Notes under the pieces: generated by a model
What the model saw: the letters and a program-made list of their open reading frames with translations, nothing else
What the model was told of the DNA's origin: nothing
Database searches by the model: none
Part shown: positions 541 through 63,207 of the stretch, in pieces
Numbering within the stretch: the first letter of the stretch is position 1
How the letters are laid out: each line of letters opens with the position of its first letter
NCBI RefSeq assembly: GCF_044704955.1
Contig: NC_091980.1
Location: 130,696,001-130,760,000 of the forward strand
Source: Pristiophorus japonicus
Lineage: Eukaryota
Length of the DNA stretch: 64,000 nucleotides
Direction: 5' to 3'
Made by a program: the position numbers and the translations under genes

Positions 541-705
541 GCCAATGATGCTCATTCTTCAAAGATGTGATTGGCTCTGGGAGTCCATCTCCCTCCTCCC
601 TTTACTTGATTGGTGCTCTGAGAAGATGCAACTTCTGATTGGGTATTGATGACTGTCACTCATCATCAAGAGTGCCACACCCAGGATTATCCCTCAGTAT
701 AAATA
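541..705 (+). promoter_or_regulatory. Type A ferritin promoter: CCAAT boxes plus TATA
   Basis: CCAAT 542-546, ATTGG at 570, 609 and 638, TATAAATA 698-705, about 80 nt before the ATG. Homologous blocks at about 24310-24475, 52580-52746 and (type C) 32550-32720. Confidence 0.75.
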
Positions 706-780
706 TTGGAGTTTGATATTAGTGAAATGTTATCTTTGTACTTCTAAAAAGTTTTTACTTTGGAAAAATAAAATATTAAG

Positions 781-8923
<8,143 letters not shown>

Positions 8924-9038: not shown

Positions 9039-9044
9039 AATAAA
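9039..9044 (+). terminator. Polyadenylation signal of ferritin copy 1
   Basis: AATAAA about 115 nt after the stop, in the context GTAAATAAACTG shared with copies 2 and 3. Confidence 0.75.
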
Positions 9045-13730: not shown

Positions 13731-13842
13731 GTTAATTGGTGCCTCAATTCAGGGAAGATTCCTGATTGGCTCTGAGGGATTTTCAATCATCATTGGTGAT
13801 GTCATACCCTATTTGAATGCAGCTGTTCCAATAGTATAAATA
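13731..13842 (+). promoter_or_regulatory. Type B ferritin promoter: CCAAT/Y-box array, CRE-like site, TATA
   Basis: ATTGG at 13735, 13765 (CTGATTGGCT) and 13792; TGATGTCA 13797-13804; CCAAT 13828; TATAAATA 13835-13842. Homolog at about 42250-42360 has a degraded TATA. Confidence 0.72.
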
Positions 13843-13911
13843 CAGGAGCTTGTGCAAGACACTGTGAGTTCCAGAACTGTGCAGAGGATAGTGAGATATA
13901 AGATAGTGAAG

Positions 13912-16464
13912 ATGGCCTCCCAAGTATGTCAGAACTACCACAAGGACTGTGAGGCTGCTGTCAACAAGCAGATCAACATGGAGCTCTGTTCCTCCTATGT
14001 TTATCTCTCCATGGTGAGTTGTGTATTCCTTGTTGCTGCATTCTGAAAAGTTGTTAATTCTCCAGTTCAATGAATTGGCTTTAAGTTGTATTTCTCTGGC
14101 CTTACTTTGCTGGGGGAGCAGAGTCTTTGGGCAGTGAGAACTTCAGGTGTGTAATATAGGGGATCTTGTTGAGTTCATGGACTGCTCTCTACAGCAGCTG
14201 CCCTCTATTGAGGTTTAATATTGGAAACCAGCTCAGTTGCTGCCTGAGTGTGTGACAGAAGAGCACAAACCTGGTCAGTGCCCTCTTGGCCTGAAACAAT
14301 GTTCAATTTCAGTGGGGACTGCAGTGAGTGAAATGTGGGTAGGCTCTCACTAGTGCTCTCATTAATTGGAGGTGATGTACTGAGAATCCTGCTGTTGGAG
14401 CCCTGCTCACTGCTGAGATCTTTATGGCACTATTGCTGTGTAAACTACTGGAGTGGAGGATTTTTCTCACTCCATGCCCAAACTTTGATTAGAATGGAAT
14501 AAGAATCATTTCTATAATGCCTTTCACTACCTTGGAATATCCAAAGTGCTTTTGTAGCCAATGAAGGAGTTAAGTGTAGTTACCTGTTATGTGGGAAATA
14601 CAGCAGCCAATTAGTGCACTGGATGCTCCCACAAACTGCAATGAGATAATGATCAGATCATCTGTTTTAGTGGTGTTGGTTGAGGGATAAATATTAGCCA
14701 GGACACTGCAGTTAGCTCCTGCAGTAGTATCTAGAACATGGAGAAGGCTTGAGGGACCAATGGCTCATTCACTAAGATCATTGCTAATCTTGTACCTCAA
14801 CTCCACCTCCTGCACTGTCCCCATATCCTTTACTATCCAAAAATCTATTGCTCTTGAATATACTCTGACTGGAATTCTCTACCCCAGGAGTTGTGGAGGC
14901 TCAGTCATCACATTGAGTGAAGAAATTCCTCCTCATCTTAGTCCTCAATGACCCCTGGTTCTAGACTCTTCAGCGGGAACCATCCTCCCTGCATCCAATC
15001 CTTCAAGCCCTGTAAGAATTGTGTACATTCCTAATGACATCACCTCTCATCCTTTGAACCTCTAGAATAGAGGCTCAGTCTGCTCAATCTCTCCTTGATC
15101 TTTCACATCCACCTGATGACTGACACACTCTTGTGTGAATGACAGAAAGTAGAGGAGGTATTGCTTATCCAGGAGTAGAATTTAGTTTGACTGGACATAA
15201 AACTAAAGTTCAGGATTATATTTCATGTTCAACCAGCAAAGCAAAAACTTTCATCATGCTATGGGGAGGTGAGGCTCAACTCCAATTGATGAAGTCAATG
15301 GCATTTTGCTAGTTTACAAATGGTGTCTATCTTTTAAGAATTCATTCACTTGGATGAAAAATAACACTTGCATTGTATATGAAGATCAAGGTCGAAATAG
15401 GCTGTCTTAATTTCTCTGCAGTCCTTCTACTTTGACCGGGATGATGTTGCCCTGTGTCACTTTGCTGAGTTCTTCAAGGAGCAGTCACATGAGGAACGTG
15501 AGCATGCTGAGAAACTGATGCAATTCCAGAATCACCGTGGAGGACTGATCATCTTGTCTGACATCAAGGTTTGGTTCAATTATCTAGTGGCTGTCTGTCT
15601 GGATACCCTTAGACCTGATTGTTTCAAATATCTCCTAAAGCAATTGATTCCATGGTTGTGGTAGTGGAATTCAGTAATTCTATATTCCTGTGACATTATT
15701 TATGGTAAAATGGAATTCTGGTTGCTTTTTAATCCTATTTTCCTTTGTTCTGTCTTTTGTATTTTGTTTGTTCCATTGTAAGTGAACTCTGATTTTCCTC
15801 TTCAGAAACCAGAGCAGGATGAGTGGAGCAATGGTCTGGATGCATTGCAGAGAGCTCTGCAGATGGAGAAGAATGTGAACCAGAGTCTGCTGGATCTGCA
15901 CAAAACCTCCACTGGGAGCACTGACCCTCATGTAAGTTCCTCATGTGGGTTTCTGGGCAACTTGGAGGTGGTGGAACATTGCTATCCTTGAGCTGTTTCA
16001 AAAGTGCTCCATGCCCAATAGCTTTGTTTTTTTTTTTGGGGGGGGGTCTCTCTGGTTCTTCAGGGGGTGGGGGAGAGGACCATGAAGTTGGCCTACTGTG
16101 GACATTGAGAAATAAATGGGTCCCAATGTTTCTAGGATCTAAGCTCACATTGTACAGTAGCTACTGCATCATTAGAGCAAATGTACATCAATTTCAATTG
16201 CCCTACCTGATCCTTCACTCCTAGAGAATTAAAATCCTAACTTGGGGGGGATGCTCTGATCCTTGATATCTGCGACTGGCCATAACTTATTTCCCTCTTC
16301 TCTTTCAGATGTGTGACTTCCTGGAGACCCACTACTTGGATGAACAAGTGAAGATGATCAAGAAGCTTGGAGATCACATCACCAACCTGAAGAGACTGGG
16401 AGCCCCTGAGAATGGCATGGGAGTGTACTTGTTTGACAAGCACACCCTAGGGGAGAGTGAATAA
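13912..16464 (+). CDS. fth1-like: Ferritin heavy/middle-chain-like gene, copy 2 (type B), intact, 176 aa, 4 exons
   Basis: Exons 13912-14013, 15422-15568, 15806-15931, 16309-16464, GT-AG introns, open frame to TAA. Ferroxidase residues intact. TATAAATA at 13835 and AATAAA at 16582. 15 amino-acid differences from copy 1 by hand count. Confidence 0.95.
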
Positions 16465-16581: not shown

Positions 16582-16587
16582 AATAAA
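16582..16587 (+). terminator. Polyadenylation signal of ferritin copy 2
   Basis: AATAAA about 117 nt after the stop, same context as copy 1. Confidence 0.75.
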
Positions 16588-23770: not shown

Positions 23771-24550
23771 CAAATATCCAATGAGTTGTTTGGATGTTGC
23801 TTCAAACCGCAGATACCTGCAAATGATCAACCCACTGAACAATACAGAACTATTAAAAAAACACTGACTCGCAAACAACAGAGGATTCAATGAACCTTTC
23901 AAGGTGGCCATTAACTGGTCCAGGCAGAGCACGGTCGATGGGGTGTTCTCTCAGTCTGCCTGCCTCTCTTCCGCGGCGATATCCGTGCCAGGGTATCCCT
24001 GGATTGGGAGCACGCAGTGTCTCCCGGTATGCTTGAGGCTTTCCGTCATCGGAGGGCACCAGAGGGAGGGGAGCGCAGCGTGGATACAGGGAAATAATGT
24101 AAATTTTTTAAGTTTTTATGTTAGTTTTGTCATAATGTGGATCTGACAGTTTATTCCCCCTTTTCAAGGGAGCACTTATGGTTTAAGTGTTTCCGATAGC
24201 TGAATTAAACATTCCAATTAATTAGCCCAAAGAATCGAGAATCCAATCAAACTTGTGACTCTGGATATTTGAGGAAAGTTCGGACAATTGAGATCCTCAT
24301 TGAGAAGTCAGCCAATGATGTTCATTCTTCAAAGATCTGACTGGCTCTGGGAGTCCATCTCCCTCCTCCCTTTACTTGATTGGTGCTCTGAGAAGATGCA
24401 ACTTCTGATTGGGTATTGATGACTGTCACTCATCATCAAGAGTGCCACACCCTGGATTATCCCTCAGTATAAATATAGGAGTTTGAGTTTGGTTAAATGT
24501 TATCTTTGTACTTCTAGAAAGTTTTTACTTTGGAAAAATAAAATATTAAG

Positions 24551-28824
<4,274 letters not shown>

Positions 28825-31800
28825 CTGAAGCTTCTGATCAGTACTCGTGTTTAAACAATGTGTGTGTGTGTGTGAGACTTTGTCCTACATAGAATGGTGG
28901 CTTTGTACAGCCTGGGACCTGGACGCTTGATGTGAAATATAATTAACTGTAAATAAACTGTCTAATATTGGACTGGCTTTTGTCTCCTTGCAAGTTTGAC
29001 TGGCTGCTTATTTTCCATTTACCATAACTTGGTTGCAGCACAAGTATTGCACTCGGCTATGCAACAGCCATACATTGGTTACAGCACATGAGGCCATTCA
29101 GCCTGTCGAGCCTGTGCCGGCTCTCCAAGAGCACCTTAGCTAGTCCTACTCCCTTGCATTTTCCCTGTAGCCCTGCAATTATTTTCCTTCAGGTACTTGT
29201 CCAATTCCATGATTGAAACTGCCTCCACCACCCTCTTGGGCAGCACAATCCAGATACTAACCACTCACTGCATAAAAGTTTTTCCTTATGTCAGCTGTGG
29301 TTCTTCTGTCAATTGCCTTAAATTTGTGTCTGCTGTTCTTGTCCCTTCTGCCAGTGGGAACAGTCCTATAATTTTTGGCTTTTTGCTGGGGTAATTTCAA
29401 TATATTGACATTTATATTCATAAGAACTTAGGAGCAGTAGCAGCCCATTTGGACCTTTGAAGCCTGCAATCCCATTCAATATGATCATAACTGATCCTTT
29501 AACAACACCATGCTTTTACCCCATAGCCCTTGATGCCTTTTGTATCAAGATATCTATCTCCTTCTTAAATATATTCAGTGATTGGGCTCCACTGCCTTCT
29601 GTGGTTAATAGTTCCCCAGCTTCCCCATCCTCTGAGTGAAAACATTTTTTATCTCAGTGCTAAATTTCCTACCCCATATCCTGAGCCTGTGACACTTTTT
29701 AGTCTCAACTTCCCGGCCAGGGGCAACTTCCTCCCCACATCCAGTCTATCCAATAAGATCCCCTTTCACTCTTCTAGTGAATACAGGCCTGGTCAACCCA
29801 ATCTCTCATGATAATCTTTCCATCCAAGGAATCAGTCTGGTGGGACTTTGCTGCACTCTTTCTTGGCTAAGGAGACCCAAAACTGTGCATAATACACCAG
29901 GTGTAGTTTCACCAAGGCCCTGTATAATTGTAGTAAGACATCCTTGCTCCTGTTCTGTGAACAATTGTAAATATTACATTTGGTTTCCTCCTCTCAATCT
30001 ATTTATTTATATATATCTATATAAAGATATATATATATATGACTAGCTGGTGCCCAAGCACTGAGCCCTGTGGTTTCTCACTAGTTACTGGCCACCACCC
30101 AGGAAAAGACTTGTTTATTCCTACTCTGTTTCCTATCAATTAACCAATATTCAATCCATGCCAGTATATTACACCCAATCCTATGTGCTTTAATTTTGCA
30201 CACTAACCTCTTGTGGGATATTATCAAAGGCCTTCTGAAAATCCAAATACACTACATGCACTGGTTGTCCCTTATCTAATTTCAGTTACATCCTCAAAAG
30301 AAACTCCAGTAGGTTTGTCAAACACTTTGATTTTCATGAATCCATATTGACTTTGTCTAATCCCGTTGATATTTTCTAAGTGTCCCTTTATCACATTCTA
30401 CTAATGTTCGGCTAAACAGGCGGTAGTTACCTCTTTTCTTTCTCCTTCCTTTTTAAAATAGTGGGATTACATTTGCCACCCTCCAATCTGCAGCAACTGT
30501 TCCATAATCGGTAGAATTTTGGAAGATAATAACCAATGCATCCACTATTTCCATGGCTACCACTTTTAGTACTCTGGGATGCAGATTATCAGGCCCTGGG
30601 GATTTATCAGCTTTCAATCGCATTTGTTTCTCCAGCACTGTTTTCTGACTAATAATCCTTTCCTTTACTTTCTCTTGCTCACGATCCTCGGATGTTATTT
30701 GTGTCCTCTTCTGTGAAGACAGAACCGAGGTATTTAATTGTTCTGCCATTTCCTTGTTCCCCATTATAAATTATCCCATTTGTGACTGTAAAGGACCTAC
30801 ATTTATCTTCGCTAATCTTTTTCTTTTTACATACTGGGAGAAACTTTTACTGTCGTTTTTTATGATCCTTGCAAGTTTAGTCTCATACACTATTTTCCCC
30901 CTCTTAAACAATCTCTTGGTCCTTTTTTGCTGAATTCTAAACTGCTCCCAATCCTCAGGCTTGTTACTTTTTCTGGCAACTTTGTATAACTCCTCTTTGG
31001 ATCTAATACTATCCTTAATTGCTTTTGTAATCCATGGTTGGGGCACTTTTCCTTTTGTGTTTTTGCAGCAGAAAGGAAAGTATAACTGTTGCAATTCATG
31101 CATTCGTTCCTTAAATGTTAGCCATTGACTATCCACCATCATGCCTTTTAATGACTCTTCCCAATCTATCATAGCCATTCCTCATACCTTCATAGTTTCC
31201 TTTGTTTAGATTTTGGACCTAGTTTTGGATTGGACATCTTCACTTTCAATCTTCATGAAGAATTCAATCATGTTCTGATCATTCTTCCCGAAAGGACCCC
31301 GCACAAAAAGACGATTAATTAACTCCTTCTCATTGCATAATACCCAATCTACGACAGTTATTCAGACATGTTGAAGACCTAATTTCAATTGTACTTATAT
31401 GTAATGACTCAAAAATCTGGTTACTGTAGACTCACTCAGGTGCAACTTCATCCATCTTTATTCCAGCCCAAGAGTGCCAGAGTGACAAAGACACCCAGCT
31501 TACACCCAGCTTACATACAGGTGATCAAGCACACATGCCGCGTGTGTACAGCCTGACGACCTCCGACCGTGGCACCCTCTGATGTCTTGTGACCCCCACG
31601 CATTAATACATAAGAGAATATCTTGCAAATTCTATTCATGCATTTCAATCTAGCGTTGCAATGCTGCAATACAACAGTTGAAAATGTTCACGTTTGTTCA
31701 GCCACATAAGGCAGTGGGACCACAGGTAAATGTTAATGTCTTAAAGGAGGCAGAGAGGTTTACATAATAACATGCAATGTCATTTGGCACCTCGAGCCTG

Positions 31801-32747
31801 TTCCGCCATTCAATAAAATCATGGCTGGTCTGAACTTGGTCTCAACACTTTCCTGCCTGTTCCCCATAACCCTTGACTCCCCTATTGTTCAAAAATCTAT
31901 CTATCTCCACCTTAAATGTATTCAATGACCCTGCCCCACACACGCACACACACACACACACACACACAGTACTGAGGGAGTGCCGCACTGTCAGAGGGGC
32001 AATACTGAGGGAGTGCCGCACTGTCGGAGGGGCAGTACTAAAGGAGTGCTGCAGTGTTGGAGAGGAAGTACTGAGGGAGCATTGTATTGTCAGAGGGGCA
32101 GTACTGACAGGGTTCTGCACTGTCTGAGGGGCAGTACTGAGGGATTGCTGCACTGTCGGAGGTACCATCTTTCAGATGAGATGCGAGGCTGTCTGCTCTC
32201 TTAGGTGGACGTAAAAATTCTCAGGTTGCTATTTCGAAGAAGCGCAGGGAGTGTTCTCTCCGGTGTCCTTGATAATATTTATCCCGCAACCAAAACAGAT
32301 TATCTGGTCATTAACATACTGCTGAACTTGATTGGTTGTAAAGAGCTTTGAGACATCCTGAGGCCATGAAAGGGCTATATAAATGGAATTCTTTCTTCTT
32401 TCTAAGAGGATAAACGTTCCCAAGCCTCCTTTAAGTTTAAGTTTCTTTCAACATCTTTTGTGAAGTTGCAATCTTTGTTGGTTGTGCCTTTTGAAAAAGG
32501 GGCCCATGCTTGACTTTAAATTGACAATTGCCGCCGACAAAAAGAAGAGTCAGCCAAAGATGCTCATTCTTCAAAATTCATGACTGGCTCTGGGAGTCAT
32601 GGCCCCTCCTCCCTTTACTTGATTGGTGCTCTGACAGAGGCTGCAACTTGTGATTGGGTATTGAGGAATGACACTCACAGCTAGACTGTCCCGCCCTGGA
32701 TTATCCAGCAGTGTAAAGACAGGAGTTTGAAAATCGGTAACTCTCAG

Positions 32748-32775
32748 CTTCATGCTTCAACAAGGCTCAGATTTT
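32748..32775 (+). promoter_or_regulatory. Degenerate iron-responsive element relic in 5' UTR (copy 4); weaker relics at about 735-762, 24505-24532, 52775-52802
   Basis: TGCTTCAA-CAAGGC-TCAGA versus the canonical ferritin IRE TGCTTCAA-CAGTGY-TTGRA. The 5' half is exact; the loop and 3' stem are broken. It sits just after the predicted TSS, where ferritin IREs lie. Confidence 0.6.
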
Positions 32776-32792
32776 TGGAAAAGCAAATTAGG

Positions 32793-35700
32793 ATGGCCTC
32801 TCAGAACTACCACAAGGACTGTGAGGCTGCTGTCAACCAGCAGGTCAACATGGAGCTCAGTTCCTCCTATGTTTATCTCTCCATGGTGAGTCTTGTATTT
32901 CTGAGCACTTCACAATGCACCTGCTGCAATGTCAATTTACTAGATTCTGTGCTGTATCTGGCCCACCCTCACTTGATGTACAGTGAATTCATTTGTTAAA
33001 GCTCTGCTATAATGGTTGGGAAGCAAATTTTCACTCGTGTGGTGGAAGTCTGGAACATATTCTCTCTCTCCTTGCTTCCCACATTCCACCCACCCAAGGC
33101 TGTGGCTGCCTGGGCAAGGTTTTTGTTGGCTAAGGGTATCAAGGGATTGGAACATCAGCAATAGGAGTAGGCCATTTGGCTGATCTCTCCCCTCAATTCC
33201 ACCTTCCTGCACTATCCCCATGGGCCATAATTTCTTAAGTTTCAAAAAATTTATTGACCTCTGTCTTGAATATACTCAATGACTGAGCATCCACAGCCCT
33301 CTGGGGTAGAGAATTCCATAAATTCATCACCCTGTGAGTGAGGAAATTTCAACTGCTCTCAGTCTTTAATGGCCAACCCCTTATTCTCAGACTTTGACCC
33401 CCCTGGTCCGAGATTTCCCCAGTTAGGGTAAACATTATTTCTGCATTAACCCTGTCAAGCCCCTTTAAGAATTTTGTTTAATTAGATTTGCATCTCATTC
33501 TACTAAACTCTAGAACATTGGCCTAGTCTACTCAACCTTTTCCCATCGGGCCATCTCATCATTCCAGAAACCAGTCTCGTGAAACTTTGTTGTTTCACCT
33601 CTAATTCAAGTATGTCCTTCATTGGGTAAGGAGACCAGCACTGTACACAATACTTTGGTGACACACCGAATGCCCTGTGCAATTATAGCTACATTTTTAC
33701 ATAAACTCCAATCCCTTTAACAAAAGCTCACATACCATTTGCTTTCCTAATTACTTGCTGGATAAATAGAGTTAAGCTGCAGATCTGACGAAATTGAATG
33801 GTGGAACAGGTTTGAGGGGCTGAATGGCCTACTCTTGATCTCCTCGCTTTAGTTACCAGTTTTTGCCCTTCTGTTTTTTTCTCTAACTCCCTTTTGCTTT
33901 ATTGGTGGTAAAGCCTTCAGCCATTTCCCCCCCGACTCGGTGGAGCTCTCCCTTAACCCCTCTGCTTCCCTACCTTGACCTTCATTGGTGACCTCCAACT
34001 GAAGGGTAGTATCTGGTTGTCTGCTGGAATGCCTTGATGTTTAGTTTTGAAGGTGCCAAATGAATGCTGATTAGTTTTGGTTCCACGGGATGAATGTAGC
34101 CAGTAACACTTGGGCCAGATGTACTATGAATTGTGTGCTGTGACTAGATCTCTACTTTAAGGGCTTTGCTTCTAGTTCCAGTAGTGCCCATTACATAGCC
34201 TGTACAAAATGGATCTTGGTCAATAAACCATGATTGGAATGGTACTGTTAATAATCATTCACTAATTTCTAAACCTACACCTTGAGCATTGGGTGCCAAG
34301 ATTAAGGTTATAGCTTTGAGCATGTTCTATCAAAGCTGAATTGATAACCATGGGATGATGCAGCAGTGAAGGAGGCCATCCGGCCCATTCTGCCTGTGCT
34401 GACTGTTGGGTGGAGCTATCCAACTCGTCCCACTCCCCTGCTCCATCCCATAGCCCTGCAAAATTGTCTATGTAGTTTTTTTTTAAGCTGTTGCCATTTA
34501 AATTACTTCCACCATCCTTTCTAGCACCCCATGTATTTATTTAAAAAAAAAAGTTGTCTCTTGTTGCCTCTGGTCCATTTGCCAATCACCTTTTGATTTT
34601 CCATTATCCAGCTTCCCTATTGCTAGGGGATTATCCCCTCTCTACCACATTAGTGAAGTCAGTCGGCTGGTGCGAGCTTGTATAACATTGTACATGGAAA
34701 TTCAGGGAGACATTGTACCCTTTGAAAGAAGCAAAATTGAGTTTATGTACAATACGCACAATAATAGATCTGCCATGTGATACCCAACTACTCTTCTGAT
34801 CTCTCTGCAGTCCTTCTACGTTGACCGAGATGATGTTGCCCTGTGTTACTTTGCTGAGTTCTTCAAGGAGCAGTCACATGAGGAACGTGAGCATGCTGAG
34901 AAACTGATGCAATTCCAGAATCGGCGTGGAGGCCGCATCATCTTGGCGGACATCAAGGTTTGGCTCCATAAACAATGGGCCTTCTGTCTGGCTTCCCTTG
35001 GACTGATGGCTCCCCATACATTCTAAAGCAGTTGGTTCCAATTTACAGCACAGAAACTAGCCATTTGGACAAACTGGTCTATGCTGGTGATTAGGCTCCA
35101 GATGTCTCCCACCTTGCTTTTATACAGCAACATATCCTTTGATTTATTTTTCCCTTGTCTACTTATTTAGCTCCCCATGCAATACATCTATTCTACTCAC
35201 CTGATCAATTTGACTCCAGTGGTTGATGGCTTAATGCAGTAATTCTATATTCTAACACATAGGTTCATTGCATCCTTGACTTCTGATTGCATTTTTTTCA
35301 TCCCTAATTCCTTCAATACTTGTTTGTTTAATCCATTGTAAAGGAACTGTGACGTTCCTCTTCAGGAACCAGAGCAGGATGAGTGGACCAATGGTCTGGA
35401 GGTGATGCAGAGAGCTCTGCAGATGGCGTAGAATGTGAACCAGAATCTGCTGGATCTGCATAAACACTCCACTGGGAGCACTGACCCTCATGTAAGTTCC
35501 TCATGTGGGGTTCTGGGTAAGTTGGAGGCGGTGGAACCTTGCTGTCCTTGAGCCTATTATAAAAATCTCTGCCCAATAGCTTCATGTTGGTGTGTATTTT
35601 TTTGGTGGGGGGAGTGGAGCAGTAGTAGGAAGGGACAGGAGGTTGGCCTACTGTGGACATTGACTAGTAAATGTGTGCCAGCAACTTTCGTGCAGCAAGT

Positions 35701-36009
35701 TTAATCGAAATGATGCAGTAATTCCATTAAGTTCAATTGCACCACTTAACTAACCTCCAGTTCAAGAGGATTAAAATCCAAACTCTTGATGGGTAAGCTC
35801 TGATATTCATTGATATCTGCTCCTGGTCACAACTAGTTTCCCTCTTCTCCTGCAGTTGTGACTTCCTGGAGACCCACAACTTGGATGAACAAGTGAAGAT
35901 GATCAAGAAGCTTGGAGATCACATCATCAACCTGAAGAGACTGGGAGCCCCTGAAAATGGCCTGGGGAAGTACCTGTTTGATAAGCACATGCTAGGGATG
36001 AGCGGTTGA
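32793..36009 (+). pseudogene. Ferritin pseudogene, copy 4 (type C)
   Basis: Exons 32793-32885 (9-nt deletion removing VCQ), 34811-34957, 35366-35491 (E107-equivalent changed to Ala, then TAG 35429-35431), 35856-36009 (2-nt deletion at exon start). TATA reads TGTAAAGA and the polyA signal reads TATAAA. Confidence 0.92.
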
Positions 36010-40712: not shown

Positions 40713-42429
40713 TTCTTCGATCAATACAGGTGTAAATACACAGACACATGTTTGATTCAGGTGGGTCAACTGGGCACATTGTTGGCATCTCCCGCAAAAG
40801 GGCAGTGCCTGTGGTGTGATTGGTGGCTCTGGCTCTCAATCACTGCCGCACTCTCTGCCCAATCTAAAGCAGAGTTTTAATCCAAGGGAACACCTCTCAT
40901 CAGCTCATCCAGGACTGAACCACTTCTGCACTGAAACCAGAAGTCACGGCTTTGGATCTCCGAGAAACACAAACATGAAAGGCCAATGACCAGAGGGGAG
41001 AGATGAGGACGATTATTTTTACGCAGCAAGTTGTGGTGATCCGGGACGCGCTGCCTGAAAGGGCGGAGGAATCAGATTCAATAGTAACTTTAAAGAGGGA
41101 ATTGCATATATACTTGACAAAAGTTGCAGGTCTATGGGGAAGGAGCTGAGAAGTGGAACTAATTGGATCACTCTTTGAAAGAGCCTGCACAGGCACGATG
41201 GGCTGAATGTCCTCTTTCTGTGCTGATAGAATCTATGATGAGCCAGACAGTTGGAGCATATCTGAGCCTCATCATTTCAATCAGATTTAAATATTCTTTT
41301 GCCTCACTGAAAGCCGACTGTAAAAGGACGCGTCCAACACATCAAATTGAGGGTCAGGAAAAGACCAGCTGGTCTATCAAGCCTGCCCCAAAACACGGCA
41401 GAGCAAATCATAGAATCATAGAATGGTTACAGCACAGAGGGAGGCCATTCGGCCCATCGAACCCGTGCCGGCTCTCTGCAAGAGCATTTCAGCTTGTCCC
41501 ACTCCCCCGCCCTTCCCCCGCAAACCTGCTATTAATTTTTCCTTCGGGTACTTATCCAATTCCCTTTTGAAAGCCACGATTGAGTCTACCTCCACCACCC
41601 TCTCGGGCATTGCATTCCAGATCCCAACCACTCGCTGTGTAAACATATCGACTTTGTTCTTTTGCCAGTCACTTTAAATCTGTGTCCTCTGGTTCTCGAC
41701 CCTTCCGCCAAAGGGAACAGTTACTGTCTATCGACTCTGTCCAGACACCTCATGATTTTGAATCCCTCTTTCAAATGGAGACGTGTCTGTGGGTGACAAT
41801 GTGTTCAGTAATGTTCACTCCCTCTCATTCTCGCTCAATATATTGAATTTTACCAGGCATCATTCCATGAGAATAAAAATGACAGATCGTTGATGCCCCC
41901 ATGTAGCCAATCCTCAGACACATGCCCATTCTCTATATTCGAACTGGGGGCAGTTCACACCATCCACAGGATGGAATTCCCATTTCACTGGCCAATGCTT
42001 GGTTTGTAAATGCACCGAGACGACTTGATTGCTTTGAATATTGTCTCAGTGCCACAGAAACTTGCAAGTAACAAACTTCGCCAGATTATGAAAAACCCCT
42101 TTGGCGAAAGTAGAAAATTATCATTTCATTCAAGTGAGAGTGTTAAACAACGGCACACTTTCAGATTTGAAGAGGTTCAAGGAACCCAAAGGCAGTGACA
42201 GCACTGAGACTGATCACCCCAGAACCCGCCCCCAAACCCCCTCTCCTTTTTTAATTGGTGCCTGAATTCAGCGAAGATTCCTGATTGGCTCTCAGGGATT
42301 GTCAATCATCATTGGTGATGTCATACTCTGTTTGCATGCAGCCCTTCCGATCGTATAACTGCAGGAGCTTGTGTCAGACATAGTGAGTTCTCGAACTGTG
42401 TAGGTGATAGTGAAATATAGATCGTGAAG

Positions 42430-45026
<2,597 letters not shown>

Positions 45027-51000: not shown

Positions 51001-53729
51001 AGATATATCACCAAAGATTCCTCTGTAAGATCCTGTAAATTCCCTGGGAGGACAGATGCACCAACATCAGTGTCCTCGCGCAGGCTAACATCCCCAGCAT
51101 TGAAGCACTAACCACATGTGATCAGCTTTGCTGGGCAGGCCACTTAGTCCACATGCCAGACATGAGACTCCCTAAGCAACTGCTCTATGCGGAACTCCTT
51201 TTTGGCAAACGAGCCAAAGTTAAGCAGCGGAAACGTTACAAGGACACCCTCAAAACCTCTCTGATGAAGTGCGACAGCACCACTGATGCCTGGGAGACTC
51301 TGGCCGAAGTCCATCCTAGTTGGAAAAAGTGTATCCGGGAGGGTGTTGAGCTCTTCGAATCTCAACGCTGCGAGCGTGAAGAGGTCAGGCAGCGGAAGGA
51401 AGGTGTGGTATATTAGTGCCACCCACCCACTTCCCCCGACGAATATCTGTCCCATCTGTGACAGGGTCTGTGGCTTTCATGTTGGACTGTTCAGCCACCA
51501 ACGAACTCACTTTAGGAGTGAAAGCAAGTCTTCCTCGATACTGAGTGACTGCCTATGATGATGGGTTCAGCTGCAGGTATTCCTCGCTCTGAGCTCAGAA
51601 CTGCGCCAATGGTTAACACTCATCTGTGCCTTTTTATCTCTAGAATTGACTATTTCAATGCTCTCCTGCTTGCCTTACATGCTCCATAAACTTAAGCTTA
51701 TCCAAAACTCTGCTGCCCGTATCCTAACACACACCTAGTCCCACTCACCCATGACCCCTGTGCTTGTGGACCATCATTGGCTCCCGGTCTGACAGCGCCT
51801 CAAATTCAAGATTCTTATCCTTGTATTAAAATCCCACCATGGCCCTTCCCTCACCTCTTTTCCCAGCACATTGATAATATCGGTGCTGTTTCCTGCTCTC
51901 ACAATAAACTGGAACATTTAATTCACTATGTTCCCAATTTCCACCCTTCACTCACCTTCACATGGTCCATTTCTGTCACTTCACTTCCCTTTCTCGACTT
52001 CTCTGTCTATCGTCTCAGTCGATCAGACAAATATCCAATGAGTTGTTTGGATGTTGCTTCAAACCCACAGATACCTGCAAATGATCAACCCACTGAACAA
52101 TCCAGAACTATTAAAAAAACACTGACTCGCAAACAACAGAAGATTCAATGAATCTTTCAAGGTGGCCATTAACTGGTCCAGGCAGAGCACGGTCGATGGG
52201 GTGTTCCCTCTGTCTGCCTGCCTCTCTTCTGCGGCTATATCCGCGCCCGGGTATCCCTGGATTGGGAGCATGCGGTGTCTGCCGGTATGCTTGAGGCTTT
52301 CCGTCATCGGAGGGCACCAGAGGGAGGGGAGCGCAGCGTGGATACAGGGAAATAATGTAAAATTTTAAAAGTTTTTTTGTTAGTTTTGTCATAATGTGGG
52401 TCTGAAAGTTTATTCCCCCTTATAAAGGGAGCACTTATGGTTTAAGTGTTTCCGATAGCTGAATTAAACATTCCAATTAATTAGCCCAAAGAATAGAGAA
52501 TCCAATTAAACCTGTGACTCTGGATATTTGAACTGTGTTTGAGGATAGTTAGGACAATTGAGATCCTCATTGAGTTGTCAGCCAATGATGCTCATTCTTC
52601 AAAGATCTGACTGGCTCTGGGAGTCCATCTCCCTCCTTCCTTTACTTGATTGGTGCTCTGAGAAGATGCAACTTCTGATTGGGTATTGATGACTGTCACT
52701 CATCATCAAGAATGCCACACCCTGGATTATCCCTCAGTATAAATATAGGTGTTTGAGATTGGCAAAATGTTACCTTTGTACTTCAACAAAGTTTTTACTT
52801 TGGAAAAATAAAATATTAAGATGGCTTCTCAAGTGCGTCAGAATTACCACCAGGACTGTAAGGATGCTGTCAACAAGCAGATCAACATGGAGCTTTCTTT
52901 CTCCTATGTTTATCTCTTTCTGGTGAGTTTTGTGTTTTTGCCACTTTACAATGGAGACTATGTAATGTGAATTTATGAAATCCTGTGCTGTACACAGCTC
53001 ACCTCTTGCTCTCTTTCTGTCCACCCCGCCTTCCCCCCCCCCCCCCCAACCCGCCCTGAATCTATGCAGTGAATTCACATTTAAAGCTATAATATAATAC
53101 AATTTATCTTAATTTGTATTTGTTAACAAATTCTCTCTGTTCCTTGTATCATCTGATTATCTTGATTCTTTCTTTTTCCTGGAATCTTGAGCTTGATTAA
53201 GTTTATTTGGAATACATTCTGCACACAATGCAAGGAATTCAGAATTAGTATCCTCATTCTAAATCACTGCATGGATTGTCCTTACCTTGCTGGTTCAATG
53301 GGTGGTGTCATAAAAATAAATCTAAGCCATTTAGGAGGGAAGTTAGGAAGTATTCTTTCCCACAAGTGTGGTGAAAATCTGAAACGCTTTCTTTCCCAGC
53401 CATCTCTCACCTCCACAGGGGGAGGATGGGAGGAAAGTGTTACAAATGTTTCTGCTTCCCTCCTGTTCCTAGTGTTTCTAACCTCTAAATTTTAAGTACC
53501 AGATTGTATCCTTTTTTCCTCGCACTTTTAGCACCAATAAAGCAAAGAAAGTTCATCAATTGTCTACACTGTGGACTCTACCTTAACCCCTGTGATCTTC
53601 ACCAAGCACCTCAAATTCTGAGGGGTTCTCCGAACACTTTTTTTTTCTGTGGTCTCTGCTTCTCCGCTACTGTGCCAAATTAATGCTGCATGTGGTAGTT
53701 TTAGTTCTTTGGCATGATTGTAGCCAGTA

Positions 53730-56700
53730 TGTTAGCATGAATGTTTTCTCAGAAGAATCACTCAACACTCAGTCGGTTCCAATGCCCATGCGGGGAGGAA
53801 GCCTCAGGACTGGATCCAGGCACTTCTCTTCGACGAACGAAGAAACTCATCGTTATTTATATGTTTTACAATAGTTCTTTAGTTACTCAGCCCACTTCGG
53901 CTGGTCACAATCCAATCATAATGATTATAAATTACATATCGGTTTCTTTAACCCAATAAAATTCCCCATATACCTCAGGGGCTGTATGTTCGGTTTTGTC
54001 AGCTCGGGCTGATTAATGACCTCGTTATGTGAGGCAGGTTCTCCCCTTATCTCTGTTCCTCGTGGCTCGGCTGTGTGAAGTCACTGATTATACCAGTGTA
54101 CTATAATGGTTCGTTATAATTATCTTGTATCCAAGGCATTCCTGGTAGTGGGCCTCACTAGGTCATTGCTCAGTCATTGCTCGAGTTCATTACTTGACTA
54201 ATTGAGTACCCATCATGCCTGGGCAGCCATTTTATGTGTGGCCACTTTAAACTTGAGTTTAGATATATTCATTAGGTGCCTAATGCCAACAACAATTCTC
54301 CCCCCCCCCCCCCCTTCAGTAAAGGGACTAGTCCTAGTCCCCCTTTAACCGACCGTCCTACTTTTATTAGTTTTGTGCACGGCCTGGTACTCCCTGCCTC
54401 AATGTGCTGGCGAGTCATGTGGTTTCAGGAGTCCCGGTTGCTTAAATCAAATTAACAAAGGCCAAATCCTCCCCCTTTATTAGACAGGCTTGTTTAGTAT
54501 TTGGGGACCGGTCATGGGTCCCTTTTTGTCGTGCTTTGTGCCTGCATGCCTGGCAGGCCATTCTGCCCCATGTTATTACTAAGATTAATTGTATCCCGAC
54601 TAGTATGTGAAATTATTTGAATCCAAGGATGGATGTTCAAATTTATTCCCCAGTCCCAGACCTTTATCCACCAAATCTGACTTTCAGTCTCCTTCGATAT
54701 CTTCTTCCAGTACTTTGATTTTAGTTTGCAGTTGGTGGTAGAGCTTTATGGATTGACCCACCGAGCCTCAATTCTCGTAATACTTCGGTTAGATGTTGGA
54801 TAGGGACCTGAACTGGCTCGTCATAATCCTGCAAATGATCGTGGAGCTGATCGGTTACATCAATAACTTCAGGCTTCCGGCGCCTAACCTGGGTGATGTG
54901 CGCTTGCCCGATTGTGACAGGTCGTAGCGGCGCAAAGCAAATGTTCGGTTGGTATCGGGTACTGCAGGTCATTATACCGGTATGAACGCTCTGTGGTAGA
55001 GACGCAGTATCTTCCCTTCCCTCTGTAGCCTACCCTCGCGAAGTGCCTGTGTGCGGGCACTATTTCTAGTACACACCCGTCGGTTCGCTTAAACCCGCAC
55101 TCGTCCAGCTCACCTCGGCCTACCGGGTGAGAGCATACTGTGATCTCCCCCCTTTGCTTGCATTCTGTTTGGGAGATCCCGGTTTCTCCTCATCTCAGTC
55201 CCAAATGGCCTGACCCCTATCCTGAGACTGTGACTCCTGGTTCTAGACTCCCCAGCCCGGAGGGGAAACAGCCTCCCAGTATCTAAGCTGAATTATATAT
55301 GTCGTATGCCGTTTCAACAAACGGCGGAGGTGCTGGTCAGATAGTAACGTATGGAGACATTTTCCTGTATTACTCCGATATTCTCGTTGGTACAGGGGGA
55401 ACGGCCCTGAATCCGGTGTGGCTATAGGGGTCATCAGGAGTATCCCTATCCCAGTATTCCTACCCATCTGGCAATCTGGAATTGTTGGGTGTACTCGGTC
55501 AGTCCCTTCAGAGTACAATTATCCAGTGTCCCCCTCTGGTTAGCCAACTGAGCAAAATGTGAACTGTCTATCCAATTGGGTACTTCTGAGATTGTGGCGG
55601 ATCTGTCCCACCATCCACAGACCATAAGCGTGACAGAGTTGCCCCTGTCTTTGCTTTCCTGTATCTTCTTTTTCTCTATCAATGAGGTGATTGGTTTTGA
55701 CGTGAGCTTCCAGGACTGAGATGCCATCCAACTGGATTTCGGCACCCTCCTTTCCTAGGTTGGCTTGGTCTTCCTGGTTTTGCTCCACTCTCTAATAACT
55801 TAACCCCTTCATCACCCCTCTAAGCTGTTGCACCCTCTCATTTTACCCTTGTATATCTATCGAGTTTACTACGGAGGCCCCTGTATTGAAACCGGTAGCA
55901 ACATCATTAACTATTTCCCTCTTTATCCTGGGGGCTGACCCCTGTCCTCGGAATCTACTGGCACCCATTGCATCGGCAGCCTGCTGCATTACAACTTTAC
56001 TTAATACATTGTACATTTTCCTTTACTGTTCTGTACAGTATTCTGGCATCTGGATGCCTGAAATATTGATCAGGACAGGCACAATTTCATGTTTAACATT
56101 ATCATACAATAATTCCCCTTCGTTGTACATTACAATCGCATTTTCTGGTCCCTCAGTAGTTATGTGACAAGGCAATTCCTCGGGCAATGTAGTGGTTCTT
56201 ATGGGGTGTAGTGTCGGAGGGGGTGAGAAGCATACATACAATGATATTGCAGCCGCCCCCACCTCCTCGTAGTACCCACACAGCCCCACTCTCTTTTTGC
56301 AGATGCCTAATTGCTGGGACTGTCCCGGAGGTGTGCAAATTATGCCGAAAGTACATTCATCGGGCCCTTTGACATCCCTCCGTTTAATGCAGCTGCTCCT
56401 TGTACCCGTGGAGCACTGTACACATACCCGGTTCTTAAGATTCACTTGTAACCATGCATTAAAATAAGTCCTGTCCTTGCTCCAGTCCTTGGCTGCTGGG
56501 ATGCACATTCCATCCGTTAAATTAAACAAGACTCCATAGTTCATGTAGTTGTTTATTTCCTGAGTGTGCTGCAATCTCTTGGTATCATCCAGTGTTTGCG
56601 TGGGTCTTGAGGTTCCCAGTATCATGAGTCCCCAGAGTGGAAGTCACCACTGCGGTCCCATCTTGGTGAGTGTTTTATCTGAAAATTTTAAACCGATAGC

Positions 56701-59700
56701 CTGGTTGTCACCAGGTGTTAGGTTCTGGTCTACTTGTGTCGTTGTCACTCTGTGGAATCGGAGGTAAGGATTAGGTTAACCATATTCTTTATAGTCGTAC
56801 CATCTCTATCACTTGTCCCTGTCTGGGCTGCTGTCGGTTTTGCGTATGAGCCTGCTGTGCTTGAGCCTGCATGATGACCCATCTAAATATTATCCAAACT
56901 CCAATCAACACCAAAGCCACCATTATTCCTCCAAACATCGCTGTCTGCTTTACCTTTAGGTTGGGTTTGTGGACGACACCTACCCACCGTGGGGTACATT
57001 GGCTCTATTGCCATAGGTGATGGTGCTATGGCTGCGCACTGCACTATCCATCTAGTCCTGTTTTTTAAAACATCTCTTCCAGCCTGTTTATCTTAGCTTT
57101 TAACTCTTGACCAGCTAGTTCCGTTTTATTTTTGTTCTGAATATTCCACCATTTCCTCTGTCTGTCAAGTGAGTCTTCTTTATTTTATTAAGAAATCCAA
57201 ATTAATAATGTCCAGTATAAAACAGCTGTCAATGGAAAGGGTTATCTCCTTTACAGGTTTGTAAGAAAGTCTGATGTCATTACGTGACTTCACATAATCA
57301 TCCAAAAAATAATTTTTTTTCAAGTCTGTGCCTTAAACTTGCTTAGAAATTAGGAATCTGTTAAACAGCATAAATCATTAGTAAAGTGGTCATAATAAAA
57401 ATCTTCTCATCGGGAAAGACAGCATTTTAGATTAAACTCCAATTTTTTCTTAACTTCTAATTCAAGTACTTGCCAAATAATTTTTTTTAAATTGGTTTAA
57501 GATGAGACCACACATTTTTAGTAGCTCTTTTGTTTACTGAAGTTCAATTTTGTTTTTTACATTTCTCTCAGCACAAAATCTAAACTTCTGTGCCAGTTCC
57601 ATTTCTTCTTTCTGTGCTGAGTTAGCATAGCTTAGATCTCCTCTTGTTGTTTTCATACATTCCAACATTTCGGGTTTTTTTTTTAAACAGTTCTGTTCAC
57701 TGGGCAAATCTTGTGTTTTATTTCGCTCTCAGCACAAAATCTAAACATCTGTGCTAGTTCCATTTTCTATAAGAATTTAAAAATTCAGTAAGATTCTCTA
57801 ATTCCCAGTTTTTTTCTTTCTGTGCTGAGTTTGCATAGCTTTGATCTTTTCTCCTCGTTATCTTCAAAACCCTCCTGCTTGTTTAGACTGTTCGGGACTT
57901 TTCTTGATAAACACTGTCCATTTTGGAAATTTTTTCAAACTGCATTGAAACTTTCTCATAATTTAAAATCATTATCAATGTAGAGTGTCTTTTACCTCTT
58001 CCAATTTTTTCTTTTTCTAATTAAACCAATATCTTTTTCACAGCAAACATCAACTCGTATTTAGTAAGTTATGTCTTGTCCCATCACAAACATTTTTTTA
58101 GCACTTATTTAGTACGTTGCATCTTTTTTTTCAGATCTCCTTTCTTCAAGTTAGGTTTTGTATTCTACACTGAGGGCTCGTGACTCCATAAATTTGTTAA
58201 TTTAAAATCATTTGTTTACTTTCAAAGTTATCTTTTTCTTTTCTCCATGACTAGAATGGAGTCCAGCAATTAGGTTTTGAGGGCTGCTTTTCGTTATCTC
58301 AAAATGCTCCAGTTTCAGTTGTTAAAATGTCTCTTCTAAACTGCTAAAGCTTGCTGTTTTTAACATTTTTCAAAAGTCCCTTTTACACCTTCACAGATAG
58401 CTCGCCACTCGCCCAGGAGTTTGACCTGATCCCTGAAGGTATTTCTAGATTGTTTCCAAACCTTTTAGTTTTCTATCTCCTTTTTTCCTTTAAGAGATCA
58501 GATTTAATTTTTTTTTGAATCCACCTCAATATTTTGCTGTGCCTTCTCTGAATATCTCAAAATCCCAATTCAAACGTTGTAATTTCAATCTTTATTTAAA
58601 ATATTTTTTTGAGCGAGAAGTTTTTTTTAAAAAGGCATTCTTTATCTCATTCCTAGACTAAATTTATGTCTTTCAACCCAATGTAATCAATCATTGCATG
58701 TTTTCTTTCGACAAGTAAGTGAGCGTGTCAAATAAATTCTTTTTTTAACCACCGGGACCATGTATTTTTTATCTTTTGCTCAACAAACCTATCCTTTGTA
58801 CATTTCCGAGCTCTGTAACACATCATCTGAATAAATCCATACCTGCATTTCTAACTTAAAATATCTTAACTTCCCACATACAGGACAACACTACAAAGGG
58901 TTTAAAAAAATTAAAAAAAACTTTCACTCTGTTTAGAAAAGTGGGTGGAGCTAAAATAAACAGACACTTGCATTCCTCTTCCAACCAGGCTTTCGGAAAA
59001 ATGAAAACATAAAAAAATTCATTCCGCAGTCATAAAATCACAAGGACTCAATGACAGACATTCACAAAAGTCTCTTCATTCAACAAGTTTATTAATTTGT
59101 TTTTTTGGCTGGCTCTATTCTTGCATCCATAGTTCACTTAAGATAATCACTATCAGGTTTTTTTATTTCTTGCATGTTGATTTACTTCCCCTCAGTTTTA
59201 TGTGGGCTCGCAGTATCAAAACTACAGCCTTTTCATTTTTATCTTTCTTTTCCTTCTCCCACCATTCTGCTGGTCTGCTGGCAGGTCCTGAAGATCCCAC
59301 CCTGCTCTAATCATTTTCTCGATTTGTTTCTTTTGTTTTTCCGCCAGGTGGCGGGTAAGGGACCCTTCTGGTCACCACTCGGTTATTTGTTTTATTGGCC
59401 ATACCTGGGTAGGACTAGAACCGTTAGGAATCTACTCTCGGAGGTCCGCTTTCTACCTAGCGTAACTTGTAGTAGACCGTCTCCTGGCTACTGTCAGGTC
59501 ACAAGTTCTGCTGTTGCACAAACTTATTCAATTCTTAAAACGCGTTTCAGCAATTCCCACAGTGCTCTACGTATCCTTAACGACTTCCTACCACCGCTCT
59601 ACCCGTTAGTCCGACCCTGTTCACAGGTTTGGATTCCGTTAGCTGCTGTACACCGCTTGGTTCTACCCCGGGGTATATTTCAAATTACACTAATGGGTCC

Positions 59701-60566
59701 GGAAGATGTCTTTCAGTATCACGATCCCACGGTCCAAGTGTGTTCCCGGCACCTACTTAGTTCCTGGCCATCACGTGGGACTAAAGTCCTCTTAATTAAG
59801 GCTCAGGCTAGGTGTTTGAGATATTGGACCGCCTCCTCGTGTTGATCTTCCAGCATCGACCTTCTGCACCGTTATAAAATTTTGTTTAAGGTATACTCAC
59901 CCGGTTTCTCCAAGAGCGTCAGTGACCCCAAAATCTTGTTAATGATGGCACTGTTAGCATGAATGTTTTCTCAGAAGAATCACTCAACACTGAGTCGGTT
60001 CCAACGCCAGTGCGGCCTTTATTTTTGCATGCGGGAAGGAAGCCTCAAGACTGGATCCAGGCACTTCTCTCTGACGAATAAAGAAACTCATCGATATTTA
60101 TGTTTTACAATAGTTCTTTACAGTTACTCAGCCCACTTCGGCTGGACACAATCCAATCGTAATGATTATAGATTACATATAGGTTTCTTTAACCCAACAG
60201 AATTCCCCATATAACTCAAGGGCTGTATGTTCGGTTTTGTCAGCTTGGGCTAATTAATGACCTCGTTATGTGAGGCAGGTTCTCCCCTTATCTCTGTTCC
60301 TCGGGGCTCGGCTGTGTGAAGTCACTGATTATACCAGTGTACTATAATGGTTCGTTATAATTATCTTGTATCTAAGGCATTCCTGGTAGTGGGCCTCACT
60401 AGGTCATTGCTCATTCAGCCCCAGTTCATCACTTGACTAATTGAGTACCCATCATGCCTGGGCAGCCATTTTGTGTGTCCACTTTAAAGTTGAGTTTAGA
60501 TATATTCAGCAGGTGCCTAATGCCTAGTGTTTTGATATATTCAGCAAGTGCCTAATGCCGACAACA
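53730..60566 (-). mobile_element. Endogenous retrovirus-like LTR element with decayed envelope gene and no visible pol
   Basis: LTRs 53730-54294 and 59952-60566 (TG...CA). TSD CAGTA at 53725-53729 and 60567-60571; empty site GCCAGTAAAA in copy 1 at about 1681. Minus-strand AATAAA at 60018-60023, poly-G PPT at about 54295-54315, PBS-like sequence 59932-59950. Confidence 0.93.
54440..56938 (-). pseudogene. Decayed class I fusion glycoprotein (env) of the LTR element
   Basis: N-terminal hydrophobic segment MFGGIMVALVLIGVWIIF (ATG 56938), Cys-rich ectodomain (ORF 56023-56625), furin site RIKR at about 55918-55929 followed by EIVNDVATGFNTGASVVNSIDI, heptad-like LDGISVLEAHVKTNHLIDRE, Cys-rich region, Trp-rich WWIKVWDWG and a TM-like PWIQIISH..LVGIQLILVITWG at about 54565-54675. 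Several stops and frameshifts. Confidence 0.8.
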
Positions 60567-63207
60567 CAGTAAAACTCAGCTAGTTTTTCTCTTTTTTTTT
60601 TATATACAATATGAATTCTGCACTGTGACTCGATCTCTAGTTTAGGAAGTTGCTTTGACTGCCAATACTGCCCCTCAACTAGCCTGTACAAAATGTATTT
60701 GGGGTAATAAAGTAGTATTATTAGAGCATGCTACTGATGACCAGGGTATAAATCTTGTGGCAACTCCGTCACTAATTTCCAAAGCTACAATGGATATAGG
60801 GTGCCAAGATTAAGGTTCCAGTTTTAAGCATGTTCAATCAAAGCTGAATTGGTGATTGTGGAGTGATGCAGCACAGGAGGCCATTCAGCCCATTGTGCCT
60901 TGCTGAATGTTGGGCGGAGTGATACAACTGTTTCCATAGCCTGCAAATTTTTCTAAATCACGCAAGAGGATGAGACTGGGGAATTAGTAATGGGCAACAT
61001 AGAGATGGCAGAAAATCTGAACAAATATCTTGTATCTGTTTTGACAGTAGAGGACAGTAACAACATTCCAATGGTGGATAGTCAAGGGGCTATAGAGGGG
61101 AGGTATTTAATGCAGTAACAATCACCTGATGAGGTAGGACTCAGTAAGATAATTGGGCGAAAGTCAGATAAATGGTCCTGAAGGCTTGCATCCTAGGGTC
61201 TTGAGAAGTAGCGGCAGGGATTGTGGATGCATTGGTTGTAATTTACCAAAATTCCCTGGATTCTGGGGAGGTCCCAGCAGATTGGAAAGATGCAAATGTA
61301 ATGCCCCTATTTTTTTTAAAAGTTGGAAACTATAGACCAGTTTGCCTAAAATCTGATTGGAAAAATGTTGGAGTCCATTATTAACATAGCAGCAGGGACA
61401 TTTGGAAAAGCAAAATTTGATCAGTAGAGTCGGCATGGATTTATGAAGGGGAAGTCATGTTTGATATATTTGCTGGCATTCTTTGAGGATGTAACAAACC
61501 CAGTTGATGGTGAACCAGTGGCTGTGGTGTATTTGGACTTCCAGAAGGCATTTGACAAGGTGCCACAAAATTACTGCACAAGATGAAAGTTCACAGGCTT
61601 TGGGGGTAATATACGAGGATGGATAGAGGATTGGCTAAAGAACCGAGTTGGGATAAATGGTTCATTCTCTGATTGGCAACCAGTATCTAGTAGAGTGCCG
61701 CAGGGATCAGTGTTGGTACCCCAACTATTTACAATCTATATATTACACTCTGTCCCTCCATCCAAGTCTGTAACGTAGCCTAGTTTGTTGTTCCTCCCAA
61801 CTTTGTCAGTGATGTGTGAGAACACACATCTGCAAAAGGACATAGGCAGGCTAAGTGAGTGGGCAAAAATTTGACTGTTGGAAAGTGAGGTCATGCACTT
61901 TAGCAGAAAAAAAAAATCAGCAAATTTTTATTTAAATGGAGAAAGATTGCAAAGTGCCACAGTACAGCAGGAGTGGAGGGGGGTGGGGTGCCTTTACTCA
62001 ATGGAATTCAGAAGAACGAGGTGATCTTATTGAAATGTATAAGATTGAGGGGGCTTGACTGCGTGGATACAGAGAGGATGTTCCCGCTGATGGGGGAGAC
62101 TACAACTAGAGGCATGATCTTAGAATAAGGGGCTGCCCATATAGAACTGAGAAAGTTCTTAAGGGTTGTCAACCTGTGGAATTTGCTGCCTGAGCTGTGG
62201 AAAGCTGAGACATTGAATAAATTTAAGACTGTAATACAGTTTCTTAAATGCTAGGGGATTATGTGGGGATAAGTCAATGATCAGATCAGCCATAATAAAT
62301 GGTGGAAAAGGCTCAGAGCTGTGTGATCTACTCCTGTTCATATTTCTCATAAGTTTCCCTATGGCTGGAGCTGAAATTATCCAATGTCTTTACCAGGTTA
62401 GTTGAGTAGGTGTTAGTTTCCATAACTATACATTCAAGTTCAGTGAGACTGAGCCCTTAAAGCAAGAAAAATGAGTTTGACTTCATGTACAATGCCCATA
62501 ATGGGTGTGCCATGGAATAATCAACTACTCTTCTGAGCCCTCCGCAGTCCGTCTACTTTGACCGGGATGATGTTGCCCTGCGTCACTTTGCGTTCTTCAA
62601 GGAGCAGTCACATGAGGAACATGAGCATGCTGAGAAACTGATGGAATTCCAGAATCGGCGTGGAGGCCGAATCATCTAGGCAGACATCAAGGTTTGGCTC
62701 CATAAACGAGGGCCCTTCTGTTTGGTTCCCCTTAGACTGATTGTTCACAATACATTGTAAAGGAGTTGGTTACAATTTACAGCACAGGAACCAGCCATTT
62801 GGACAAACTGGTCCATGCTGGTGATCAGCTTCAGACGACGTAATCCCACCTTGCTTTATCCAGCAACATATCATTCTATTCCTTTTTCCCTCATGTACTT
62901 ATTTAGTTTCCCCTCAAATACATCTATGCTATTCACCTCATAAATTTGACATCGGTAGTTGACTTAATGCAGTAATTCAATATTCTAACACATTGTTTCA
63001 TGGTAACCTAGACTTCTGATTGCAATTTTTCCATCCCTAATTTCCTTCAATACTGTCCTATTTCCAAACCTGTTTTTACTGCTTGTACTATTACATATGT
63101 GCCACCAGAGGGCACTGCAGTCAGACTTGCAGGTGACCTGTACAGGTGTGCCTTGCCCAGTATAAAAGGCAGGCCAACAGGTGTGATTCTCACCACGAGT
63201 TCCATTA

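Follow-up and report, generated by a model that had tools for sequence, protein, structure and literature searches.

An amplified, IRE-less ferritin family of sharks in Pristiophorus japonicus and its likely part in the iron store of the egg

FTHL17 is an H-type ferritin that has a ferroxidase site, is not known to carry an IRE and shows a restricted, germline-biased expression. FTMT, the mitochondrial ferritin of mammals, resembles the ferritins described here in being a vertebrate H-type ferritin with a ferroxidase site, no IRE and a restricted, germline-biased expression, but it is described as an intronless, single-copy gene encoding a targeting leader (PMC8393899), whereas the present genes are split into four exons, encode no such leader and number in the hundreds. 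The yolk ferritin of snails (Lymnaea, Biomphalaria) is likewise egg-linked and has an IRE-less 5' UTR beside IRE-bearing ferritins; it is described as carrying a signal peptide and a 42-aa insertion (PMC10799875), both of which are missing from the shark proteins. The likeness to the snail protein is a convergent way of working and not membership. Tandem amplification of a fish ferritin has also been described for fthl27 of snailfish, but with 14 recent and broadly expressed copies, and the available text of that paper never mentions IREs (PMC10746142).

The closest described system is found in sharks. In the Greenland shark, 155 FTL and 179 FTH1 calls are reported, in clusters that are syntenic with those of the great white shark, and the largest ferritin cluster is reported to be expressed specifically in the ovary; the terms IRE, iron and UTR do not occur in the main text of this preprint (10.1101/2024.09.09.611499). 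The array analysed here agrees with these clusters, as far as the preprint describes them, in comprising hundreds of mostly full-length copies shared by distant sharks, and its proteins group with Carcharodon proteins. It differs in that the genes labelled FTH1 or FTL there form a clade of their own here, apart from both IRE-bearing genes, in which the IRE has been lost. Compared with vertebrate FTH1 and FTL/middle-subunit genes carrying IRE_I (RF00037), the array genes have the same exon structure, ~71% identity, the ferroxidase residues and a homologous 5' arm of the IRE, but the loop and stem are broken, the NCOA4-contact residues are changed, and the genome has its own intact-IRE orthologs on contigs C14 and C19.

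The stretch of DNA analysed (64 kb; hereafter the window) lies at 130.70–130.76 Mb of contig C4 and contains six ferritin genes of four exons, all on the + strand, with ATGs at positions 781, 13912, 24551, 32793, 42430 and 52821 (copies 1 to 6). Only copies 1 and 2 have intact ORFs, of 176 aa each. Copy 1 (781..8923; exons 781-882, 3655-3801, 8334-8459 and 8768-8923; AATAAA at 9039) has a type A promoter with a TATA box (698..705) and several CCAAT boxes upstream, and a predicted 53-nt 5' UTR (728..780, with the TSS inferred from the TATA box) that contains a dead IRE remnant with the loop AAAAGT (747-752). Copy 2 (13912..16464; exons 13912-14013, 15422-15568, 15806-15931 and 16309-16464; AATAAA at 16582) is preceded by a TATA box (13835-13842) and a type B leader, together 13835..13911, without any recognisable IRE remnant. 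Copy 3 is a type A pseudogene with three in-frame stops (24468..28828; TATA at 24468) and the remnant loop GAAAGT (24517-24522). Copy 4, a type C pseudogene (32712..36009; degraded TATA at 32712) with a stop in exon 3 and a 9-nt deletion in exon 1, carries the best preserved remnant of the window, with the loop CAAGGC (32761-32766), and an upstream ATG at 32752. The type B copy 5 (42354..45010), whose leader has no remnant, is broken, since exon 2 lacks a base at its end and exon 4 carries a 2-nt insertion. Copy 6 is of type A (52738..62691; TATA at 52738) with the remnant loop CAAAGT (52787-52792); its exon 2 (62548-62691) contains a stop, and the window ends before the later exons.

These genes belong to an array that spans ~127.8-133.4 Mb of C4, i.e., ~5.6 million bases. 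An exon-2 search returned at least 150 matches, all at C4 127.85-133.40 Mb (150 scored of 366 candidates). Genome-wide, 202 sites match a tight exon-1 pattern exactly, and 99 of the 100 that were listed lie inside the array interval. Since this pattern catches 46 of 68 sampled first exons, the copy number of the array is estimated at ~300, and at least ~200, so that it belongs with the mega-clusters of more than 200 tandem copies that are common to sharks. One copy was found at 127.785 Mb, near the lower edge; there was none in nine tiles at 127.25-127.78 Mb and none in 12 tiles above 133.41 Mb, and as these tiles are sparse, both edges are approximate. Leaders were sampled from 60 tiles spread evenly among the best exon-2 matches, from 20 tiles chosen for copy-4-like leaders and from the edge tiles. 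This non-random sample, which favours intact copies and in which gene models were called automatically, yielded 96 distinct first exons, corresponding to 47 intact models, 33 broken ones and 16 cut by tile ends. Thus 33 of 80 complete models are broken and 47 are intact in this biased set, and 20 of the 23 models of type C are broken. Among named proteins, those nearest to the array are annotated in sharks as 'ferritin heavy chain B-like' or 'higher subunit-like' and fall into clusters with as many as 180 members. At C4 129.04-129.70 and 132.3-133.1 Mb there are large segmental duplications, both direct and inverted, whose copies are nearly identical; the spacing of identical matches gives periods of ~260 kb and ~130 kb, and part of these duplications could be assembly redundancy.

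The absence of an intact IRE from all six copies, as stated by the original prediction, holds. No Rfam family matched the 64-kb window at its gathering score, and IRE_I gave no match there even at E<=10. At 34 bits or more, IRE_I was found neither in the window nor in 10 array tiles, while both control genes were detected, at 46.2 bits (C14) and 45.2 bits (C19). The remnant strings that had been quoted were located at 739, 24509, 32753 and 52779 as claimed, a string check likewise found no CAGTG in the type B leaders of copies 2 and 5, and the proposed leaders of ~50 nt fit the TATA-like boxes lying 76-83 nt before the ATG, which predict 46-53 nt with the TSS inferred. The loss extends over the array: with a canonical core defined by SIREs-like pairing rules and two canonical loops (rules from PMC2896125), none of the 99 array leaders (96 distinct) contains such a core. 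Up to 3 kb upstream of the 99 ATGs only three cores were found, all weak (-1.8 to -5.7 kcal/mol), whereas the true IREs of the C14 and C19 genes fold at -7.5 and -11.1 kcal/mol. CAGTG lies 20-48 nt before the ATG in seven exon-1 matches genome-wide, all of type B, and no stem surrounds it in the three of these seven that were scanned. Two IRE-like hairpins with a CAGAGT loop occur on the - strand of the window (8020-8050 and 63254-63284), in an intronic repeat; they are antisense to the ferritin genes and under the Rfam threshold. Hairpins with this loop in the tiles are also repeat, antisense or outside leaders, and were rejected as regulatory elements.

The set used for the loop comprises 71 leaders scored as types A or C, one of which is a mis-typed type B. 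At loop position 16, 70 of them have A, one has C and none has G; A, G and C all occur at position 17, where T is absent throughout. CAAAGT (24) and CAAGGC (15) are the most frequent loops. Five of the 71, all of type C, preserve the 14 nt of the 5' arm of the C19 IRE without any change. In 43 of 70 leaders, which are related copies and not independent ones, no other site within 300 nt matches the core as well as the remnant does. Compared with dinucleotide shuffles, the 20-nt core reaches p=0.045 in copy 4, p=0.013 in copy 6 and p=0.0015-0.014 in four copies from beyond the window; copies 1 and 3 (p 0.21 and 0.22) and the type B copies 2 and 5 (0.36 and 0.32) do not reach significance. Judging from these similarities, the remnant is a genuine IRE homologue in the best-kept copies. 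Copies 1, 3, 4 and 6 keep 2, 2, 3 and 3 of the five upper-stem pairs, together with C8. Array-wide, 35 of 71 leaders have four or five pairs, with all five present in nine, and C8 (58/71), C14 (57/71) and G18 (57/71) are often retained; with such residues, a weak binding of IRPs by these leaders is conceivable.

Promoter and exon-1 trees separate three families, A, B and C, with SH-aLRT supports of 98, 99 and 99. As none of the 70 leaders with a remnant retains the loop G, the loop was likely broken once, before the A/C split, in the common ancestor of these two families. The part of the original prediction that saw a visible 'erosion series' in the window is not supported by this comparison: the CAAGGC loop of copy 4 and the most frequent loop, CAAAGT, each differ from CAGTGN by two changes, and copy 4 belongs to promoter clade C while copies 1, 3 and 6 belong to clade A. 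Graded erosion as a time series was rejected, the series being one of paralogs ordered by later drift, and so was copy 4 as a functional intermediate. The remnant shows no stronger conservation (0.80, 0.88 and 0.72) than the remaining leader (0.83), which fits drift.

Array promoters combine a TATA box with two to five CCAAT boxes, and the IRE genes have one CCAAT box each. From this organisation, regulation of the array genes by transcription is plausible. The position of the remnant fits a cap-proximal 5' UTR, given the TSS inferred from the TATA box. In an intronless retrocopy on C3 (216.27 Mb), exons 1-4 are joined and preceded by 44 nt of a type A leader, in which the dead loop is preserved and which runs directly into the ATG. 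It shows that a spliced transcript with the dead leader existed, and implies expression in the germline or early embryo. A LINE-like repeat interrupts the 3' end of this processed pseudogene of a type A mRNA. Contigs from two runs of other organisms, tentatively taken for RNA, match the exons of copy 2 and bridge its predicted introns with the exons joined. A replacement of the IRE by CPE control is not supported, as a canonical CPE is present in just three of 72 3' UTRs (those with a polyA signal among 82 examined).

The 36 intact gap-free copies have a dN/dS of 0.23; intact copies are under purifying selection. All seven residues that we take to form the ferroxidase centre, the numbering of which was checked against a PDB H chain, are present in 35 of these 36 copies, which places the array proteins with the ferroxidase-active (H/M-type) ferritins. 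The array proteins, of 176 aa, appear from their sequence to have neither a signal peptide nor the 42-aa insertion; a close homolog aligns end to end and without gaps to solved cytosolic ferritins, and the four-exon genes start with an ATG placed directly at the mature start, without any targeting leader.

In human FTH1, the changes A19Y, N22A and R23A are reported to abolish NCOA4 binding, and R23K does not occur in the available text of that study (PMC11076521). The contact residue R23 is replaced by K in all 36 intact array copies, and D90 by E in all 36; L27 is M in 35 of 36 and A19 is D, H or N in 27 of 36. The C14 and C19 IRE genes retain A19, R23 and D90. A pattern search found K at the R23 site in 21 of 28 shark array-type database proteins, and the N-termini visible among the remaining seven add K three times and Q once; of 15 non-shark proteins that were parsed, 14 have R. 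R23K is a conservative change; still, array ferritin may perhaps be free of ferritinophagy. The FTH1 of this genome itself differs from the human protein at N22 (S) and F82 (L), so that shark NCOA4 may bind differently.

A search for a separate IRE-bearing fth1 elsewhere in the genome, which the original prediction had proposed as a check, was successful: two genes with perfect IREs exist, one on C14 and one on C19 (the genome-wide Rfam search gave at least six matches, with 82 candidates scored). The C14 gene lies ~60 kb from a bestrophin gene on the opposite strand, which we take to be the tail-to-tail arrangement of human FTH1; the array has no such arrangement. On C19, and not on C4, a RUVBL-family gene and a glycogen synthase-family gene are found at 1.6 Mb and 4.3 Mb from the IRE gene, which is reminiscent of the linkage to RUVBL2 and GYS1 at the FTL/middle-subunit locus. 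Three aconitase-family loci are present in the genome. A genome-wide loss of ferritin iron control was rejected, given the C14 and C19 genes. The proposed escape from IRP control is therefore well supported, by sequence, across the array (96 distinct leaders) and fails for the organism, in which IRE-bearing ferritins persist: iron control, as read from these leaders, is lost by one specialised paralog family and not by the animal.

The identity of the array proteins to the three ferritins of the genome that lie outside the array is 69-71%. In a protein tree of 46 rows, made up of 11 array copies, the three own genes and 32 homologs taken from 105, they form one clade, with support of 100/99, together with proteins of eight shark genera (Heterodontus, Heptranchias, Carcharodon, Cetorhinus, Scyliorhinus, Mustelus, Chiloscyllium and Stegostoma); this 46-row tree does not place the sister of the array among the IRE genes. 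Three broken array-type copies, the leaders of which have been replaced, adjoin the C19 IRE gene and suggest that the array originated from the C19 locus. The array promoters bear a weak likeness to the one in front of the C19 IRE gene (p 0.006-0.24).

Several other ferritin sequences were encountered. On C19, an intron-containing ferritin without IRE (~93.128-93.142 Mb, +) has intact ferroxidase residues and an Arg/Ala/Leu-rich N-terminal extension, and is possibly, from this extension, an independent mitochondrial ferritin. It lies near a divergent IRE-less ferritin (~93.109-93.122 Mb, -), the exons of which were located and the TATA region of which resembles array promoters (p 0.002-0.064). 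Copies of 91-102 nt of the C19 leader, with a perfect IRE, are dispersed at C10:8.57, C12:134.27, C17:127.18 and C18:13.52 Mb. All four begin near the predicted cap site and end at the same T-rich point, and two are inside LINE-like repeats; they resemble tailless 5' retrocopies, target-site duplications being not clearly shown. At C14:140.72 Mb, the promoter and leader of the C19 ferritin recur as a decayed copy (76% identity) with a broken IRE, and no coding exon was seen nearby. Two ferritins of vertebrate type that are deposited under the names of bacteria, on contigs of less than 1 kb, are likely host contamination; one of them groups with the C19 IRE gene in the protein tree.

Taken as a whole, the array can be viewed as part of a shark-wide, amplified and IRE-less ferritin family that is likely translated whatever the iron level of the cell and so builds the iron store of the egg, a reading to which we give a probability of about 0.6. 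The role that comes out ahead from the comparison with known systems would be that of a cytosolic iron store in the oocyte for a long yolk-fed development. This role is suggested by the ovary-specific expression in another shark, by the ferritin reported in amphibian eggs (cited in PMC1488847) and by the IRE-less yolk ferritin of snails. The following model can be drawn. An IRE-bearing ferritin of the FTL/middle-subunit locus would have been duplicated, its loop would have changed once, and type B would later have lost the remnant. IRP1 and IRP2 would then no longer block cap-proximal initiation, leading to translation whatever the labile iron level, with an output set by gene dosage and by a TATA/multi-CCAAT promoter active in the ovary. 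More speculatively, R23K and A19D at the NCOA4 cleft might slow lysosomal turnover, and this slower turnover might allow the cages to persist as the store of the embryo. The full version of this model, in which a shark egg ferritin freed from both IRP repression and NCOA4 degradation was amplified for yolky eggs and converged on that of snails, is tentative and rather doubtful.

Part of the same evidence could be read differently. The amplification might provide a general antioxidant or stress dosage in many tissues, as proposed for fthl27 of snailfish, whose 14 copies are described as highly expressed in most tissues and protective against ROS in cells (PMC10746142). The intact ferroxidase site of the array copies would suit such a role, but the shark cluster is reported to be ovary-specific (10.1101/2024.09.09.611499) and the multi-copy family is present in many shark genera and not tied to one habitat, so that this explanation is unlikely. 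A neutral birth-and-death array, in which the IRE decayed in redundant copies and copy number came from segmental duplication, appears equally improbable. It would account for the broken models (33 of 80, and 20 of 23 in type C), for the numerous near-identical segmental repeats and for a remnant without special conservation. It does not account for the dN/dS of 0.23 with an intact ferroxidase site, nor for a family kept across sharks with shared derived residues, and the splicing seen in array-type contigs of two runs, tentatively taken for RNA, also argues against it.

Least probable of all is a hidden IRP control, exerted through a non-canonical loop or through an IRE in an unannotated upstream exon. 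C8, C14, G18 and some of the upper stem do often persist in the leaders, and SELEX loops other than CAGWGH are reported to bind IRPs (PMC2896125). However, the window has no IRE_I match at E<=10, the three cores found within 3 kb upstream of the 99 ATGs are weak, and of the two intact copies of the window, copy 1 has 2/5 stem pairs and copy 2 no remnant at all. The retrocopy, moreover, shows the remnant contiguous with the ATG in a spliced mRNA. The reading as an IRE-less egg store is preferred.

The array itself is already known, as the shark cluster is in print (10.1101/2024.09.09.611499). No report of the IRE loss, of the separate lineage or of the NCOA4-site changes in this cluster was found in the literature covered, outside of which lie most subscription journals and the preprint supplements. 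A second shark genome paper is said to describe an expansion of FTH1b. The shark expansion thus stands in print as a curiosity, labelled FTH1/FTL and loosely tied to longevity and ferroptosis. IRE-less ferritins such as FTMT and the snail yolk ferritin being known already, the surprise is limited. The expanded genes nevertheless appear as a separate lineage in which the IRE was likely lost once, whereas the true IRE-bearing genes stayed single. As a natural collection from a vertebrate, the array offers both leaders with a dead IRE and variants of the NCOA4 site, and it is to be read no longer as 'more housekeeping ferritin' but as a specialised iron store that is probably maternal.
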